From NCBI GenBank assembly GCA_964399865.1, contig CAYNRJ010000001.1:67727-131726 (forward strand): a stretch of 64,000 bases of DNA, read 5' to 3'. The notes beneath the pieces are model-generated. The model was not told where the DNA came from. It ran no database searches and saw only the letters and a list, made by a program, of their open reading frames with translations. Of this stretch, positions 7,041 through 60,170 are shown one piece after another. This DNA is from an uncultured Candidatus Saccharibacteria bacterium. Lineage in GTDB: Bacteria; Patescibacteriota; Minisyncoccia; Phycocordibacterales; UBA2100. Position 1 is the stretch's first letter, and every line of letters begins with the position of its first letter. A program made the translations under genes and the position numbers.

Positions 7041-7082
7041 AAAAAGCAAAGAGGGTCGCCCGGACGTGGGGCGACCCTCTTG
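7041..7082 (-). terminator. intrinsic terminator of the GC-rich secreted-protein gene
   Basis: Perfect 12-bp stem AGAGGGTCGCCC / GGGCGACCCTCT with a 7-nt loop, followed on the - strand by UGCUUUUUAGUUUU. Confidence 0.7.
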
Positions 7083-25909: not shown

Positions 25910-25946
25910 ACTCCGGGCGCCACGCGTGCCCGGAGTTGATTTTTTT
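25910..25946 (+). terminator. GC-rich intrinsic terminator
   Basis: ACTCCGGGC-(9-nt loop)-GCCCGGAGT stem followed by TGATTTTTTT; abuts the carB stop. Confidence 0.55.
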
Positions 25947-28900
25947 ATACGCCTCGATACTCACTCCAGGTTTTCGCTATCATTCCACCTGCTTTAAGTT
26001 CGTGTAGAGCTGTAATGAAGCCCTCAGCTAATTGGCGGTTCGATATGAGTGGAATATTCATGTCTATTGCCTTACGACGGATCACAAAGCCATCGGTATT
26101 TTCTTGTCCAAATGCGTGTGTAGGGATGTTAATTATGAGATCCACTTTTCCATTCTCGATGAGAGATTGAACCCCCGGCTCCTTATTGGTACTTATCTTG
26201 TAGACTTTTTCGCATGGAATATTGTTCCCCTGCAGAAAATCTGCAGTTGTTTCGGTTGCCCACAAATCGAATCCCATTTCTTTAAGTAGATGCATCGACG
26301 GGAGAAGCTTCAATTTGTTCTCCTCCTTTCCGAGGGACACGAGAATGTTCTTCTTTGGAAGCCTGAAGCCAGCCGCCATCATTGATTTGATCAGCGCCTC
26401 GCCGTATGAGTCGCCAAAGCATGCTACTTCACCCGTAGAGGCCATTTCGACGAACGAGCGAGGGTCTACGCCCTTAATGCGGCTGTATGAGAACTGTGGA
26501 GATTTTACTGCCACATAATCGAGCTCAAGTGTTTGATAGTGCTGTTTATTCTTTTCGCCGAGCATTGCGCGTACCGCGATGTCTATGAAATTGTGTCCCG
26601 TTACCTTGGACACGAATGGGAATGAGCGTGAAGAGCGCACATTACATTCGATCACTTGGAGATGGTTATCCTTTGCGATGAACTGGATATTGAATGGCCC
26701 CGTGATCTTTAGTTCCTTGATGACGTCCTTTGTGATGTGCTTGGCACGGCGAATCGTCTCAAGGTACGTGCGCTGCGGTGGGAGAACGACCGTAGCATCA
26801 CCTGAATGCGTGCCTGCGTTCTCAACGTGCTCTGTTATTGCGTATATGACTAGCTTTCCATTCTGCGCTACGCCGTCAATCTCAATCTCGCGCGCATTCT
26901 CAATGAATTTCGATATGACAACAGGGTGGTCGGGGGAGACATCGGTCGCTTTTTTCAGGAATTTGAGAAGCGACTCTTCGTCAAGCGCGACTTTCATCGC
27001 CGATCCTGAGAGCACGTACGAAGGCCGGATGAGAACTGGATATCCAAACCCTGCAGCAGTTTTTGCGGCCTCGTCCATTGTCTTTAGTTCTGCCCACATT
27101 GGCTGATCGACGCCCAGTTTGTCGAGGAGCTTTGAGAATGTATGTCTATCCTCAGCGCGATCTATATCCCGCGGATCAGTTCCAAGAATTTTTGCACCAT
27201 TTTTCTTAAGTGGAAGCGCGAGGTTATTTGGGATTTGACCACCGGTCGAGACAACGACGCCCTTTGGTTTTTCGAAATCAATAATGTCGAGTACTCGTTC
27301 GAGCGTAAGTTCCTCAAAGTAGAGACGATCGGACATGTCATAGTCAGTCGATACAGTTTCAGGATTCGAGTTGATCATGATGGTCCTGTAACCAGCTGTA
27401 CCCATTGTCTTAAGGACCTGGACTGAAGACCAATCGAACTCAACTGAAGAGCCAATGCAGTATGGACCGCTTCCAATCACCGCTACGCTTTTATTGTCGC
27501 GTGCTACGTCATTTTCAGTGCCATGATAGGAGAGATAGAGGTAGTTAGTTTGCGCTGGGAATTCACCCGCGAGCGTATCGATCTGTTTTATAACAGGAAG
27601 TACCTTAAGCTTCTTACGTATGGTGCGAATTTTATCTTCAGTTGTGCCGCTAATCGTGGCGAGTTGCTTATCAGAGAAACCATACTGCTTGGCCTGTCGT
27701 ATAAGAGTTGCATCAAATTTTTGAGAGGCCAGTGTCTTCTCGAGCGAAATTATATTTTTCATCTTCTCGAGAAACCATGGGGTGATATGAGACATTCCGT
27801 GGATCTCTTCGACCGATACTCCTGCGCGAAGCGCTTCAGCAAGTGCGAAAATTCGGCGCGGTGTCGGATTTTCTATCTCCTTTCGATAATCCGCCATCCC
27901 AAAGTTGCCGTTTTTCTGTGCCGTAAATCCGTCAGCGCCGATGTTGAGCATGCGGATCGCTTTTTGGAGAACTTCTTCAAATGAACGTCCTATCGCCATC
28001 ACTTCGCCAACGCTCTTCATTTCTGTACCAATAGTTTCGGTAACATTTTCAAATTTCGTAAGGTCCCAACGTGGCATCTTGAGAACAAGGTAATCGAGTG
28101 CCGGCTCGAAGCAGGCGATTGTTGTTTTTGTAACTGAGTTTTTCAATTCTGGCAGCGTATAACCGAGTGCGAGTTTTGCGGCTACGAACGCTAGTGGATA
28201 TCCAGTCGCCTTTGAGGCAAGTGCCGATGATCGTGAGAGTCGAGCATTGACTTCGATCACTCGATAATCGCCCGTTTGAGGATTAAGCGCATATTGAATG
28301 TTGCACTCGCCAACAATGCCGAGGTGACGGATTGTCTTTATTGCCACTTCGCGAAGGCGATGATACTCCTCGTTCGTTAATGTTTGAGAGGGAGCAACGA
28401 CGATAGACTCACCCGTGTGGATTCCCATTGGATCGATGTTTTCCATGTTGCATACCGTGATGCAGTTGTCTGCACGATCACGCACAACTTCGTACTCAAC
28501 TTCTTTCCATCCGCCTAAATATTCCTCCACTAGAACTTGTGACACAGAACGAAAGACCTCGGTAAGCTTCTTTGAAAGAGCCTCTGGATTTCGAACGACG
28601 CCGGATCCTTCTCCGCCAAGTGCGAATCCAGACCGCACCATAACAGGGTAGGAGATCTTCTCGGCCGCCTGCAGCGCTTCTTCAACACTCTTCGTCGCAA
28701 TGCTTCGTGCAGTTTTTACATTGATCTCATTCAATCTATCTACGAACAGTTCGCGATCTTCTGTGTCACGAATCGCGGAGACCGGCGTCCCGAGGACGCG
28801 CGCACTGTACTTCTTAAAAACCCCATTCTTCTCGAGTGCAAGGCCAAGATTCAGTGCTGTTTGTCCGCCGAAAGAGAGCAGGATCGCATCAGGTCGCTCC

Positions 28901-29133
28901 TTTTCGATTACTTTAATAGCGAATTCCTCCGTAAGAGGTAAAAAATAGACAGTATCTGCCAATTTCTCATCAGTTTGCACAGTCGCGATGTTTGGATTCA
29001 TCAAAACGACACGGACCCCCTCTTCCTTAAGTGCCTTGATCGCCTGTGAGCCTGAGTAATCGAATTCTCCAGCCTGACCGATCTTGAGGCCGCCGCTTCC
29101 GAACAAAAGCACTTTTTTAGGTTTCTTTTCCAT
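25945..29133 (-). CDS. carB: carbamoyl-phosphate synthase large subunit
   Basis: Two ATP-grasp halves, oligomerisation domain and MGS-like C-terminus; 1062 aa. Confidence 0.95.
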   Translation of the reverse strand: MEKKPKKVLLFGSGGLKIGQAGEFDYSGSQAIKALKEEGVRVVLMNPNIATVQTDEKLADTVYFLPLTEEFAIKVIEKERPDAILLSFGGQTALNLGLALEKNGVFKKYSARVLGTPVSAIRDTEDRELFVDRLNEINVKTARSIATKSVEEALQAAEKISYPVMVRSGFALGGEGSGVVRNPEALSKKLTEVFRSVSQVLVEEYLGGWKEVEYEVVRDRADNCITVCNMENIDPMGIHTGESIVVAPSQTLTNEEYHRLREVAIKTIRHLGIVGECNIQYALNPQTGDYRVIEVNARLSRSSALASKATGYPLAFVAAKLALGYTLPELKNSVTKTTIACFEPALDYLVLKMPRWDLTKFENVTETIGTEMKSVGEVMAIGRSFEEVLQKAIRMLNIGADGFTAQKNGNFGMADYRKEIENPTPRRIFALAEALRAGVSVEEIHGMSHITPWFLEKMKNIISLEKTLASQKFDATLIRQAKQYGFSDKQLATISGTTEDKIRTIRKKLKVLPVIKQIDTLAGEFPAQTNYLYLSYHGTENDVARDNKSVAVIGSGPYCIGSSVEFDWSSVQVLKTMGTAGYRTIMINSNPETVSTDYDMSDRLYFEELTLERVLDIIDFEKPKGVVVSTGGQIPNNLALPLKKNGAKILGTDPRDIDRAEDRHTFSKLLDKLGVDQPMWAELKTMDEAAKTAAGFGYPVLIRPSYVLSGSAMKVALDEESLLKFLKKATDVSPDHPVVISKFIENAREIEIDGVAQNGKLVIYAITEHVENAGTHSGDATVVLPPQRTYLETIRRAKHITKDVIKELKITGPFNIQFIAKDNHLQVIECNVRSSRSFPFVSKVTGHNFIDIAVRAMLGEKNKQHYQTLELDYVAVKSPQFSYSRIKGVDPRSFVEMASTGEVACFGDSYGEALIKSMMAAGFRLPKKNILVSLGKEENKLKLLPSMHLLKEMGFDLWATETTADFLQGNNIPCEKVYKISTNKEPGVQSLIENGKVDLIINIPTHAFGQENTDGFVIRRKAIDMNIPLISNRQLAEGFITALHELKAGGMIAKTWSEYRGV

Positions 29134-29134
29134 A

Positions 29135-30169
29135 TTATTTCTTCAATGAGTTAAGAAACTCCTCGAATATCCAGGTTGTGTCAGTCGGTCCAGGGGTTGC
29201 TTCTGGATGGAACTGCACTGATCTCCATGGCTTTGTTTTATGCCGTATACCCTCATTTGAGCCGTCGTTTGCGTTCGTGAACCACTCTTCCCATCCAGGT
29301 GGAAGAGTTTTTGCGTCAACGGCGTATCCATGGTTCTGAGATGTGATGTAGCAGCGACCGGTTTTACTTTCTATGCACGGTTGATTTTGTGAACGGTGTC
29401 CATACTTCAGTTTTTTTGTGCGCGCTCCGACCGCAAGAGCCAGAAGTTGATTCCCAAGACAAATTCCAAGTATTGGTTTACCAGTTTTCAATGTTTTCTT
29501 TATGTTTGCTATCGTTTCCGTGCACTGAGTCGGATCTCCTGGTCCGTTTCCGAGTAGAACCGCGTCATATTTTTCGTTCGAGAAGTCGTAATTCCATGGA
29601 ACTCGGATAACTGTAGTTTCTGGGCGTACCAAACTGCGGATTATGTTCTCCTTCATTCCGCAATCTACAGCAATGATGCGTATCTGACCGTTCCCGTACT
29701 CCTTTTTTTTAGTAGGTGAGACTTTAGCAACGAGATTCTCCTTGTTTGGGTCGACAAATTTTCCTCCAGCACCCGATTCAACGAGTTGTCCAAGCATGAC
29801 ACCTTGTTCGCGCAGACGTTTGGTGAGAGCGCGTGCATCCACGCCGGTAATTGCAGGTACGCCGGATTCCTTTAGCCAATTGCCTAGGGATTTTATAGCG
29901 CCACTGTGAGAGTAATGTTCAGAATATTCGGAAACAACGAGTCCTGCCACCTGAATCTTGTTTGACTCAAAAAATCTTGCGTCTGGCACGCCGTAGTTAC
30001 CCACGAGAGGGTAGGTGCACACAAGAATCTGTCCTGCGAATGACGGATCAGTAAGACTTTCAACGTATCCAACCATTCCTGTGCCGAAAACCACTTCACC
30101 CGTTGCATTTACCGGCGCGCCGAAGCTTTTTCCCTCTACTTTTGTACCGTCTTTGAGAATTAATTTCAT
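29135..30169 (-). CDS. carA: carbamoyl-phosphate synthase small subunit (glutamine amidotransferase)
   Basis: CPSase small N-domain plus class I GATase catalytic triad region (GICLGNQLL). Confidence 0.92.
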   Translation of the reverse strand: MKLILKDGTKVEGKSFGAPVNATGEVVFGTGMVGYVESLTDPSFAGQILVCTYPLVGNYGVPDARFFESNKIQVAGLVVSEYSEHYSHSGAIKSLGNWLKESGVPAITGVDARALTKRLREQGVMLGQLVESGAGGKFVDPNKENLVAKVSPTKKKEYGNGQIRIIAVDCGMKENIIRSLVRPETTVIRVPWNYDFSNEKYDAVLLGNGPGDPTQCTETIANIKKTLKTGKPILGICLGNQLLALAVGARTKKLKYGHRSQNQPCIESKTGRCYITSQNHGYAVDAKTLPPGWEEWFTNANDGSNEGIRHKTKPWRSVQFHPEATPGPTDTTWIFEEFLNSLKK

Positions 30170-30204
30170 ATTCGTGTAGACCCTGCTTCGCTAAAGCTTC
30201 GAAG

Positions 30205-30334
30205 GGTAAGAAAAAACCCGCTAACGGCGGGTGAAAGTGACGAGTATAAAAATACACCCGGGCGGGTGTTCTTCTGATTACGCTTTCGGAGGGACATTAA
30301 AAATAAAGTATAGCGGTTTTAGAACTTCTGTCAA
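30205..30334 (-). promoter_or_regulatory. carAB promoter plus leader with two tandem hairpin-U-tract units (candidate transcription attenuator)
   Basis: - strand TTGACA-16-TATACT at 30334-30307. Leader hairpins ACACCCGCCCGGGUGU+AUUUUUAUA and ACCCGCCGUUAGCGGGU+UUUUUUCUU. The 3' arm of hairpin 2 (CGGGUG) can alternatively pair with the 5' arm of hairpin 1 (CACCCG). Confidence 0.45.
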
Positions 30335-30340
30335 GTTTCT

Positions 30341-31591
30341 GTGGATAATTGTATACTCGGAAACATGATTCGTGAGGAATTGAAACAATACGATCTTCCT
30401 GACAGCCCCGGCGTCTACCTATTTAAGGGTGGGCGAAAGATTTTGTATATCGGAAAAGCAGCGTCTCTTCGTGATCGTGTGCGCAGTTATTTTGCATCCG
30501 ACCTTGCAGATACACGGAGTCCTGCTGTTGCGGGAATGGTAGAGAAGGCCACATCGCTTTCATGGCAAGAAGCTGGTTCAGTTCTTGAGGCACTGATCCT
30601 AGAAGCAAACCTTATAAAGAAGCATCAGCCACCATACAACACCGACGAAAAGGATAATAAGAGTTTTAACTACGTCGTAATTACAAAAGAAGACTTTCCG
30701 CGTGTTCTTCTCATTCGCGGACGCGAACTTGCTCAAGGATGGAGTGATGGAGACATCAAACACTTGTTTGGACCATATCCCCACGGAGGGCAACTTAGGG
30801 AAGCGCTGAAAATGATACGGCGGATATTCCCATTTAGAGATACATGCGACCCGATCACCGGAAAACCATGTTTTAACAGACAGATCGGACTTTGTCCGGG
30901 AGTTTGTTCAGGAGAAATGAGCAAAACAGAGTATGCGAAGACGATCCGAAACCTTAAAGAGCTGCTTTCCGGAAATTTTAAGGGTCTGAAGCGTCAGCTT
31001 GCTCGCGACATGAAATATGCCTCGGAAAATGAAGATTTCGAAGCTGCTTCGGAGCTCAGAAGGCAAGTGGGAGCGCTTGAACACATACGAGACGTATCGC
31101 TCATTAAAGATGAGAAGAGAATTGCATTCGGGGGACCCTCCACTCTTCGCAGCTCTCGAATCGAAGCGTATGACGTGGCTCACACTGCCGGCTCTGAGAC
31201 TGTTGCAGTCATGACGGTCGTAGAAGACGGCGAAGCCTCGAAAAACGAATACAGGAAGTTTAAGATCCGTTCAGTTAAAAATGACGATGTAGCGGCACTC
31301 AAGGAGGCTCTCTCGAGGCGCCTTAATCACCCTGAGTGGCCTCTTCCTCGTATATTTGTAGTTGACGGCGGAAAAGGGCAGGTGCGAGCCGCAGAAGGTA
31401 TTCTCGAGGGCGCTGGCGTTGTTATTCCGGTTGTTGGTGTAGTGAAAAATGAATTTCACAAACCGGAACGCCTAATCGGAGATCAAAAACTGATCGAGGT
31501 CCACGAGAAAGATATCGTTCTCGCGAATTCCGAGGCTCATAGGTACGGGATCGGTTGGCATCGAACGAGATTGCGCCGGGCGATGATATAA
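30341..31591 (+). CDS. uvrC: excinuclease ABC subunit C, short form lacking the C-terminal HhH domain
   Basis: GIY-YIG (GVYLFKG...ILYIGKA), UvrB-interacting UVR domain, and RNase H-like endonuclease domain with VVDGGKGQV. Only ~416 aa. Confidence 0.8.
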   Translation: MDNCILGNMIREELKQYDLPDSPGVYLFKGGRKILYIGKAASLRDRVRSYFASDLADTRSPAVAGMVEKATSLSWQEAGSVLEALILEANLIKKHQPPYNTDEKDNKSFNYVVITKEDFPRVLLIRGRELAQGWSDGDIKHLFGPYPHGGQLREALKMIRRIFPFRDTCDPITGKPCFNRQIGLCPGVCSGEMSKTEYAKTIRNLKELLSGNFKGLKRQLARDMKYASENEDFEAASELRRQVGALEHIRDVSLIKDEKRIAFGGPSTLRSSRIEAYDVAHTAGSETVAVMTVVEDGEASKNEYRKFKIRSVKNDDVAALKEALSRRLNHPEWPLPRIFVVDGGKGQVRAAEGILEGAGVVIPVVGVVKNEFHKPERLIGDQKLIEVHEKDIVLANSEAHRYGIGWHRTRLRRAMI

Positions 31592-32591: not shown

Positions 32592-32663
32592 GGGCCAGTA
32601 GTTCAGTGGTAGAACGTCTCATTTGCAATGAGAAAGTCGGGGGTTCGATTCCTCTCTGGTCCA
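32592..32663 (+). tRNA. tRNA-Ala (anticodon UGC)
   Basis: Cloverleaf: acceptor GGGCCAG/CTGGTCC with the G3:U70 Ala identity pair. D-arm GTTC-AGTGGTA-GAAC. Anticodon stem TCTCA/TGAGA with loop TTTGCAA. T-loop GGTTCGATT. No encoded CCA. Confidence 0.7.
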
Positions 32664-32672
32664 CACATTTAT

Positions 32673-37092: not shown

Positions 37093-37274
37093 TATACTCC
37101 CCGGCCTATAAAAATCGCAATGATTTAGCCTGTGGATGCAAGATTGACTATTTTTCGCCCGGCGGTACGATTGCCTCGAATGTATGGTTTCCAGTGCGCC
37201 GACGGTTGTGTAAACCTAGAGGAGCAGAGGAAAAGGCGATCTACATCATTAAAGGAATACACAACCAAAATACA

Positions 37275-52009: not shown

Positions 52010-52411
52010 ATGCCGGATTTGGTGCGGCGATTGTTTGAGTTTGCGATCTTCGCAACCTGCGCGGCATTCTTCGCGTTCTTTCTTGCGGAGAAGGGGATGT
52101 CAGTGTTTGCAGATGAAAGTAACACGCTGGTGCACGTGAGGGATGTGGTCGGCCCAGGAGTGCACGAACTTTCAGGGATGATTATGCTCGATTCCATTTG
52201 CGAGCAACTGCGAGTAGATAGTGAGAAACGGACACCAACTCACTACCATCTACGGATCAAGACCTGGACTGAACCGTATCGAGACTGTGTAAGCGAAGAA
52301 ACTCCACGGAAATTTCAAACAACCGTCTTTGCTCCCGCGTACGGCGTGATGTTTACCGCAGAACTCGACGGATCACCTCTCGAAATAGCTGTAATCCCAA
52401 TACTGCAATAA
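52010..52411 (+). CDS. hypothetical membrane-anchored protein
   Basis: One N-terminal TM (FAIFATCAAFFAFFLA); 133 aa. Confidence 0.4.
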   Translation: MPDLVRRLFEFAIFATCAAFFAFFLAEKGMSVFADESNTLVHVRDVVGPGVHELSGMIMLDSICEQLRVDSEKRTPTHYHLRIKTWTEPYRDCVSEETPRKFQTTVFAPAYGVMFTAELDGSPLEIAVIPILQ

Positions 52412-59609: not shown

Positions 59610-60170
59610 ATGGCCCCGCCGTTCTTGGTGCTGCGCGAAACCAAGCGCATTGTGCTCGCGAGACCGTTCGATCCTCGTGAGTTCTTCGGCCGGAAGAGGA
59701 AGGCGCCGCATTTCTTCTTACTCAATGATGTTTTGTCTTTGGCTCGACCTGTGGATGCTGGCACGGAATTCGACGTCCACATTTTCGAGGTCGGTAGTCG
59801 CGAGGTGTCACTCGACGCACTAGCAACACGCGGGATTAATACAACCGAGGAGTTTGTTGCGTCTTTGGATAAGCTGATGCCCACTATTCAGAATATCCGA
59901 GCAGCATTGCCGACCCCGAGATACTTTGAACCAACGGCATTGTGTGCGGTCCTTGGCGCCATACTCGATCCGCAGCTTAACGGCTCCGAAGGCGACTTGA
60001 GTACACAGCATGACAATCTGTTCTTTGCGGAATCGTGCTGGGTCTTCGCTAGGTGCGTCGAGTGGAGCGAACCTGGAGAAGAGCTGAAACTATGGACAGT
60101 CAACAGCATGCCGCTGTCCCATCAGACGAGCTACAGTCGGGGGCCTTATGTGTTTGCGCCCGCGCTATGA
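59610..60170 (+). CDS. hypothetical protein
   Basis: AGGAAGGA RBS; 186 aa; followed by a terminator; no recognisable motif. Confidence 0.45.
   Translation: MAPPFLVLRETKRIVLARPFDPREFFGRKRKAPHFFLLNDVLSLARPVDAGTEFDVHIFEVGSREVSLDALATRGINTTEEFVASLDKLMPTIQNIRAALPTPRYFEPTALCAVLGAILDPQLNGSEGDLSTQHDNLFFAESCWVFARCVEWSEPGEELKLWTVNSMPLSHQTSYSRGPYVFAPAL

Follow-up and report, generated by a model that had tools for sequence, protein, structure and literature searches.

A candidate ribosome-coupled transcription attenuator with a leaderless leader ORF upstream of carAB in Patescibacteria

Known attenuators and the carAB leader

In the pyrBI operon, the terminator lies inside a 135-bp leader-peptide gene, and tight coupling of the ribosome to RNA polymerase prevents termination (PMC4824070; PMC5021804). 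Here we describe the leader of carAB, the carbamoyl-phosphate synthetase operon, in a 64,000-nucleotide stretch of DNA from an uncultured Candidatus Saccharibacteria bacterium (contig CAYNRJ010000001.1, assembly GCA_964399865.1; the whole stretch is hereafter called the window). From sequence comparison, and with moderate confidence, we read this leader as a ribosome-coupled transcription attenuator of the pyrBI type that has a leaderless leader open reading frame (ORF). As in pyrBI of Escherichia coli and Salmonella (leader gene pyrL), the operon belongs to the pyrimidine pathway and a terminator-like element lies inside a leader ORF that reaches the structural gene; the carAB leader ORF, at 132 bp, is also of similar size. 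Unlike that of pyrBI, however, it appears to be leaderless, with no Shine-Dalgarno (SD) sequence and a −10 box 9 nt before the ATG. It contains one or two tandem terminators, the first of them 28 nt from the 5′ end, and it stops in an ATGA overlap with carA or is fused to it. The hosts are Patescibacteria, the two leaders share no sequence similarity, and a dependence on UTP would be by analogy.

Several other described systems bear on this leader. A carA leader peptide in the promoter region and pyrimidine attenuation are on record for Pseudomonas aeruginosa (Kwon et al. 1994, as cited in PMC4997734). That leader precedes the same gene in a host with SD-led translation, and no homology is evident, a comparison limited to the citing description. 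Like the carAB leader on this reading, the trp, his and leu attenuators combine a leader ORF with a terminator and use the ribosome as their sensor, and the first of the carAB hairpins, hairpin A, may be akin to their 1:2 pause hairpin. These systems have codon runs, a competing 2:3 pairing and an ORF that ends before the terminator, whereas the carAB leader has none of these; amino-acid attenuators have more than 20 bp between the end of the leader gene and the terminator (PMC4824070). Leaderless polycysteine short ORFs of mycobacteria (the Cys “ribulon”) form the first cistron and control downstream genes through the position of the ribosome (10.1101/834739). They sense cysteine by runs of Cys codons and unmask a ribosome-binding site, unlike the carAB leader, which has no codon run, carries its terminators inside the ORF, joins carA through ATGA and leaves no carA SD sequence to unmask. 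Interplay between upstream ORFs (uORFs) and terminators is known in M. tuberculosis (10.1101/2022.06.01.494293).

PyrR-dependent pyr attenuators of Bacillus and its relatives likewise control pyrimidine and carbamoyl-phosphate genes through terminators; unlike them, the carAB leader has no PyrR binding loop and no Rfam match, and no pyrR was found among the 26 window proteins scanned. In the fungal CPA1/arg-2 system, the arginine attenuator peptide, a conserved nascent peptide, stalls the ribosome in response to arginine; the carAB leader peptide, unlike it, has a sequence that is not under selection. The carA motif of Polynucleobacter is a candidate riboswitch, a conserved RNA directly upstream of carA (PMC8632094). 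It is an extended imperfect hairpin beside the ribosome-binding site in beta-proteobacteria, and the carAB leader described here differs from it and reaches no Rfam threshold.

Ribosome-mediated attenuation, leaderless regulatory short ORFs and uORF/terminator interplay are already known. New here are the combination of a putatively leaderless leader ORF, one or two internal intrinsic terminators and an ATGA hand-over; natural variants whose leader ORF continues in frame into carA; and the occurrence of this arrangement in carA loci assigned by submitters to several groups of the candidate phyla radiation (CPR). Patescibacteria (CPR) have small genomes, are mostly uncultured, and little is known of their gene regulation; a full-text literature search on them returned no described regulatory element in these lineages. 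The carAB leader offers a concrete case, conserved in many lineages, of a putative protein-free device whose only parts are a promoter, a 5′-terminal AUG, terminator hairpins and a frame open across them. It also illustrates how a largely SD-less genome can place regulatory RNA between promoter and gene. Its natural variants, with one or two terminators and with the ORF separate or fused, act as experiments.

The leader in 17 related carA loci

We compared 17 distinct carA loci of related Patescibacteria, the window included, whose carA genes are ~68 to 95% identical; the nearest relatives come from CPR assemblies labeled Saccharibacteria, Kaiserbacteria, Taylorbacteria or Parcubacteria by their submitters. 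All 17 share a TTGAC −35 element, a TAnnnT −10 element, exactly nine bases ending in TTA, an ATG, and a frame that is open through a hairpin followed by a U tract (a hairpin+U unit). The string TTAATG, which served as the search anchor, occurs in every locus. The original prediction, made from the window alone, had proposed a consensus promoter and two hairpin–U-tract units forming a regulatory unit ahead of carA. Promoter and hairpins were recovered in the window (Table 1), and alignment of the related leaders showed the whole design to be kept in 17 of 17 loci. This conservation carries the argument: shuffled sequence is expected to yield 2.5 promoter-like and 3.1 terminator-like sites where the region has 2 and 4, which makes the simple scans nonsignificant, and the case for more than chance therefore rests on the relatives and not on site scans.

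The same prediction had stated that no leader peptide was evident. We found instead that a 43-codon ORF crosses both hairpins in the window, beginning 9 nt past the −10 box and ending in a TGA whose first two bases are also the last two of the carA ATG. Across the 17 loci the leader ORF takes ten lengths (20, 21, 31, 32, 33, 43, 45, 47, 55 and 68 codons), all in phase. Frame 0 is free of stops in every locus, compared with 4 and 6 of the 17 for the other two frames. The distance from uORF start to carA start leaves a remainder of 2 on division by three in all unfused loci, and each of these 15 ends in ATGA on the carA start; in the remaining two, L163 and L164, the leader ORF is fused in frame to carA. 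Under dinucleotide shuffling, the probability of an open frame ranges from 0.03 to 0.59 per locus, with a product over ten divergent loci of 1.3e-7, an upper-end estimate of significance, since the loci are related and shared ancestry inflates it. The many phase-preserving insertions and deletions in the leader ORF would otherwise be hard to explain. In the fused leaders (L163, 83-191; L164, 1491-1610), the frame runs ...KNTRxGVFLY|LEDGT... (MTSKKSPNKNTRQGVFLY|LEDGT...) with no separate carA ATG, and the terminator-like hairpin and its U tract lie inside codons 10 to 15 of carA itself.

On this comparison, it is the RNA and the reading frame that are conserved, and the leader peptide is not under selection, because no relaxation of the third codon position is seen. 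Information at codon positions 1, 2 and 3 was 0.76, 1.07 and 0.91 bits for uORF codons 2 to 9, and 1.81, 1.84 and 0.64 bits for carA, while leader codons 10 to 16, which span hairpin A and its U tract, are near-invariant at all three positions. In locus L083, the leader frame is displaced by one base relative to the hairpin. A functional small protein was ruled out by the absence of codon periodicity, the spread of lengths from 20 to 68 codons and the L083 frame shift, and the 43-amino-acid leader peptide gave no match when used as a query against the protein collection.

The two hairpins are conserved in different ways. Hairpin A occupies nt 29 to 44, counted from the A of the ATG, with the same near-invariant stem in 15 of the 17 loci, and is kept with other stems in L002 (CTCCC/GGGAG) and L083 (ACACCTC/GAGGTGT). 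Its sequence is present once in the window and, among the fetched loci, only at carA. The second hairpin, B, has at least nine different stems across the loci, all of them complementary (for example, ACCCGC/GCGGGT, GCCCCC/GGGGGC, CTCGCGA/TCGCGAG and GTCCC/GGGAC), and in a model-based alignment three of five scored pairs showed changes on both sides. The two-hairpin structure paired 93% of cells, against at most 66% in slid controls, and its covariation score was 0.137, compared with 0.03 to 0.07 in those controls. The RNAalifold consensus likewise consisted of two separate hairpins. Thirteen loci carry two hairpin+U units, and four (L002, L083, L163 and L164) carry one. U makes up 47 to 68% of the spacer ahead of hairpin B in those leaders that lack an insert between the two hairpins. 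Three leaders (L082, ~378-420; L162, ~2885-2925; L171, ~1385-1425) hold an extra G+C-rich hairpin without a U tract between A and B, such as gccgaagcg-ttac-gcgaaggc, and their frames stay open and in phase. A third hairpin between B and carA in the window (~30207..30180) was unsupported, with a z-score of −0.46.

A covariance model built from ten leaders, with 6 of the 16 related loci outside the training set, matched the window and every one of those 16 loci exactly once. The same search gave zero matches in ~75 other carA loci, and by this model the element is absent from carA loci beyond the clade (Bacteroidales, Planctomycetes and others). For these outside loci, in many of which the carA start could not be assigned automatically, the covariance-model search is the result relied on. 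A second design was found in another CPR lineage, in locus L033, named Magasanikiibacteriota, whose carA is 57% identical (positions 2891-2988). There, the order is TTGACG, 17 nt, the −10-like box TACCCT, 9 nt and the ATG of a 13-codon ORF. Its TAG stop codon is located in the loop of a terminator hairpin, ATCCCGC-tag-GCGGGAT, after which ATTTTTTT runs directly up to the carA ATG. This arrangement supports the same principle. Gene callers mis-annotate such loci, and some carA proteins bear false or real N-terminal extensions. Those of P0069, P0071 and P0104 (loci L166, L167 and L169) are false, the leader having been called in the wrong frame; the real leader ORF in these loci is the frame that overlaps carA by ATGA.

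The surrounding genome appears to be rich in leaderless genes and poor in SD sequences. Of 58 naive gene starts in the window, 12 have a strict −10 box 6 to 8 nt upstream of the ATG, compared with 1.3% of all ATG triplets (p = 2e-11), and most of the remaining −10-to-ATG matches are true starts that the naive ORF calls had misplaced. Examples of leaderless-type starts are 3651(−), 15732(+), 30365(+), 31599(+), 42102(+), 48360(+) and 53312(+). An SD-like motif precedes 8 of the 58 window genes, and none was found before carA. In this leaderless-rich, SD-poor setting, with no SD sequence at carA, translation of the leader ORF most likely begins at an AUG at or near the 5′ end, and the ATGA overlap is the most likely route by which ribosomes reach carA. 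Terminators at the 3′ ends of window genes share the hairpin+U design, and intrinsic termination is therefore probable in this organism; across the 64 kb, hairpins A and B are the sole sites of this kind in a 5′ leader. Two other early same-strand candidates, at 7049 and 60176, proved to be 3′-end terminators of upstream genes misplaced by naive ORF calls, and weaker sites at 52059 and 19141 were taken as chance occurrences.

Proposed ribosome coupling and competing mechanisms

Under pyrBI-type coupling, RNA polymerase would start at the AUG at 30297 or one base earlier; the start is probably the A at 30298 or 30297. A 70S ribosome could then load on the 5′-terminal AUG within the first 28 nt, which are A-rich, contain 16% U and are unpaired in the fold of the first 50 nt of the window leader. 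Following close behind the polymerase, this ribosome would keep hairpins A and B unfolded, transcription would proceed into carAB, and the same ribosome would reach the SD-less carA through the ATGA overlap. When translation is late or absent, the hairpin+U units would terminate or pause the polymerase, and the transcript would end before carA. Hairpin A is probably a pause element that, together with its U tract and the U-rich spacer, keeps ribosome and polymerase in step and lets the ribosome catch up before B; hairpin B would be an optional second, stronger terminator. On this model, the leader ORF supplies the sensing device, the ribosome, that the original prediction had called unclear.

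Which signal such a device would read is a more tentative matter. We think it possible, though rather doubtful, that it senses pyrimidine supply as UTP, through the speed of the polymerase at U-rich stretches, a suggestion that draws on the analogy with pyrBI and on the pathway. The guess at UTP-sensitive pausing in the original prediction fits the pyrBI-type reading. A further variant concerns the start site. The −10-to-ATG spacing at the carA leader is 9 nt in 17 of 17 loci, while other leaderless-type genes in the window have 6 to 8 nt and never 9, and this spacing together with the invariant TTA may set or modulate the start nucleotide. It is conceivable but unlikely that the UTP/ATP ratio picks the start nucleotide at TTA|ATG and that the terminator at fixed position +29 is licensed by immediate 70S loading. 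Transcripts starting at U would then carry a short 5′ extension, be translated poorly as leaderless messages and terminate; those starting at A would be true 5′-AUG messages with read-through. If true, this would combine pyrC-like start-site switching with pyrBI-like coupling in a form specific to leaderless messages and lineage-wide, and it would give the candidate phyla radiation its first elucidated regulatory mechanism.

Several observations count against ribosome coupling. The evidence for the leader is wholly comparative, drawn from 17 loci, and the joint open-frame probability is inflated by shared ancestry, as noted above. Only 28 nt separate the start of hairpin A from the 5′ end. In E. 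coli, ribosomes mostly fail to suppress terminators that lie within the first 100 bp of a coding region, except where pausing links ribosome and polymerase (PMC4824070). With so little U in the 28 nt upstream of hairpin A, no UTP-sensitive pause is evident there. With stems of 6 bp at −8.5 to −9.4 kcal/mol, A and B are also weaker than the 3′-end terminators of the window. Finally, 15 loci share an invariant nucleotide sequence across hairpin A and its flanks, even at third codon positions, despite divergence at the synonymous sites of their carA genes. Such invariance goes beyond what a plain terminator needs and suggests a sequence-specific partner.

This last point leads to the strongest competing explanation, in which a putative RNA-binding regulator, PyrR-like in its logic, binds hairpin A and its invariant flanks (AAGAACACCCGCnnGGGTGTATTTTT) and stabilizes or destabilizes the terminator according to a pyrimidine or arginine metabolite, the ORF serving mainly to bring ribosomes to carA. 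It would account for a hairpin A that is fixed at nt 29 to 44 with invariant sequence in 15 loci while B varies with compensation. We nevertheless judge it improbable. L002 and L083 retain the design with different stems, and the crossing of the terminators by an in-phase ORF in every locus is left unaccounted for. The original prediction was right that no PyrR box is present: nothing in the region reaches an Rfam gathering score, and at E-values of up to 10 the leader region matched only generic two-hairpin small RNA (sRNA) models below threshold (isrK, 28.7 bits against a threshold of 50). At gathering scores, the whole window yielded one tRNA, no other family and no curated leader RNA. The search for a PyrR homolog, which covered window proteins only, likewise found no phosphoribosyltransferase (PRTase) or PyrR-like protein among the 26 scanned.

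Alternatively, the arrangement could be constitutive, the leaderless uORF delivering ribosomes to carA by termination-reinitiation with no metabolic signal, and the hairpins providing an abort check on untranslated transcripts, influencing RNA stability or forming the 3′ end of a small by-product RNA. An SD-poor, leaderless-rich genome in which ATGA overlaps are common and carA lacks an SD sequence would suit such a role. A small RNA derived from the carA 5′ untranslated region has been reported in P. syringae (PMC4997734), and the weak isrK-like match reflects a two-hairpin, sRNA-like shape. Against this, hairpins of this kind in a 5′ leader are confined to carA within the 64 kb, which points to gene-specific control, and the fused loci L163 and L164 need no ribosome delivery yet retain hairpin A. 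We regard a purely constitutive role as quite unlikely.

A switch of the trp type, with alternative 1:2, 2:3 and 3:4 pairings, was the core logic of the original prediction, and the comparison does not support it in that role. In this scheme, a ribosome stalled on region 1, the 5′ arm of hairpin A, for instance at Arg codons 4, 6 and 12, would permit 2:3 pairing and prevent terminator B. The complementarity behind it is real: CGGGUG and CACCCG, in the 3′ arm of A and the 5′ arm of B respectively, can pair, and they do so in one fold of the window leader. In ten short leaders, a 5-bp version (GGGUG/YRCCC) is possible in 85% of cells without compensatory change; arm 2 never varies, which makes compensatory evidence impossible, and the shuffle control is uninformative. 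Each leader also has at least one Arg codon within its first 12 codons.

The energetics and the distribution of the alternative fold speak against such a switch. The 2:3 helix (−4 to −8 kcal/mol) is weaker than the 3:4 helix, B (−8 to −14 kcal/mol, with one of the 13 scanner-called B hairpins at −5.0), and blocking region 1 leaves B as the structure of lowest energy in 12 of the 13 leaders with two hairpins. The cross-paired fold (1:4 plus 2:3) was the minimum-energy structure in two of three folded segments of the window, was lost when the segment boundaries changed, and was the optimum in 0 of 12 relatives, including one that is 95% identical; it was ruled out as a conserved feature by this absence. 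Four loci have a single hairpin, and the consensus structure shows two separate ones. None of the 17 leader ORFs has a conserved run of regulatory codons or codon-level conservation, and the ORF extends beyond the terminator before it stops. Stalling at codon 12 would also place the ribosome over arm 2. Stalling at Arg codons as a general mechanism was also rejected, as the stem sequence itself gives rise to Arg12, and stalling at that codon would leave B free. We therefore consider a trp-type switch very unlikely, and the 2:3 pairing is an optional accessory at most.

That the palindrome ACACCCGnnCGGGTGT at +29..+44 is instead a DNA operator, bound by a dimeric repressor that blocks elongation with the RNA hairpin incidental, is extremely improbable: it is a perfect 7-2-7 inverted repeat of invariant sequence, but a U tract always follows it, most loci have a second, covarying hairpin+U unit, and the constraints on ORF phase are left unaccounted for.

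Features of the locus and neighboring sequences

The features of the window locus are collected in Table 1. A UvrC-like gene diverges from carA and shares its intergenic region, with TATACT, 7 nt and an ATG at 30365 (+).

Table 1. Features of the carAB leader and operon (window positions)
Feature	Position	Strand	Remarks
−35 hexamer TTGACA	30334..30329	−	Promoter scan; with the −10 hexamer, 11/12 match and 16-nt spacer
−10 hexamer TATACT	30312..30307	−	Promoter scan
−10-to-ATG stretch ttattttta, 9 nt	30298..30306	−	Ends in TTA
Leader ORF, 43 codons + TGA (MSLRKRNQKNTRPGVFLYSSLSPAVSGFFLTLRSFSEAGSTRI)	30297..30166	−	Crosses both hairpins; ATG 30297..30295, TGA 30168..30166
Hairpin A, ACACCC-gccc-GGGTGT, ~−8.5 kcal/mol	30254..30269	−	nt 29-44 of leader ORF
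U tract of A, ATTTTTATA	30245..30253	−	Opens U-rich spacer 30233..30253, 52% U
Hairpin B, ACCCGC-cgtta-GCGGGT, ~−9.4 kcal/mol	30216..30232	−	nt 66-82 of leader ORF
U tract of B, TTTTTTCTT	30207..30215	−	Terminator scan
ATGA junction, leader ORF TGA overlapping carA ATG	30166..30169	−	Context ...ATATGA...
carA, 344 aa, carbamoyl-phosphate synthetase (CPSase) small chain	29135..30169	−	PF00988, PF00117 (CPSase small chain + GATase)
carB, 1062 aa, second gene of operon	25945..29133	−	CPSase_L domains in gene calls of homologous loci

A perfect DnaA-box-like sequence, TTATCCACA, lies at 30340-30348 (−), 5 nt upstream of the carA −35 element, and is the sole perfect copy in the 64 kb. At the same position, ATCCAC is conserved in 7 of the 17 related carA loci. 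The shorter ATCCACAG also lies ~40 nt ahead of the starts of two further window genes, at 37130-37137 (−) and 59749-59756 (−), and TTATCCACA/ATCCACAG could be a transcription-factor site common to several promoters. Elsewhere in the window, a tRNA-Ala gene (anticodon TGC) at 32592-32664 (+) overlaps the naive start (32628) of an alcohol-dehydrogenase-like ORF, whose true start probably lies downstream of that position.

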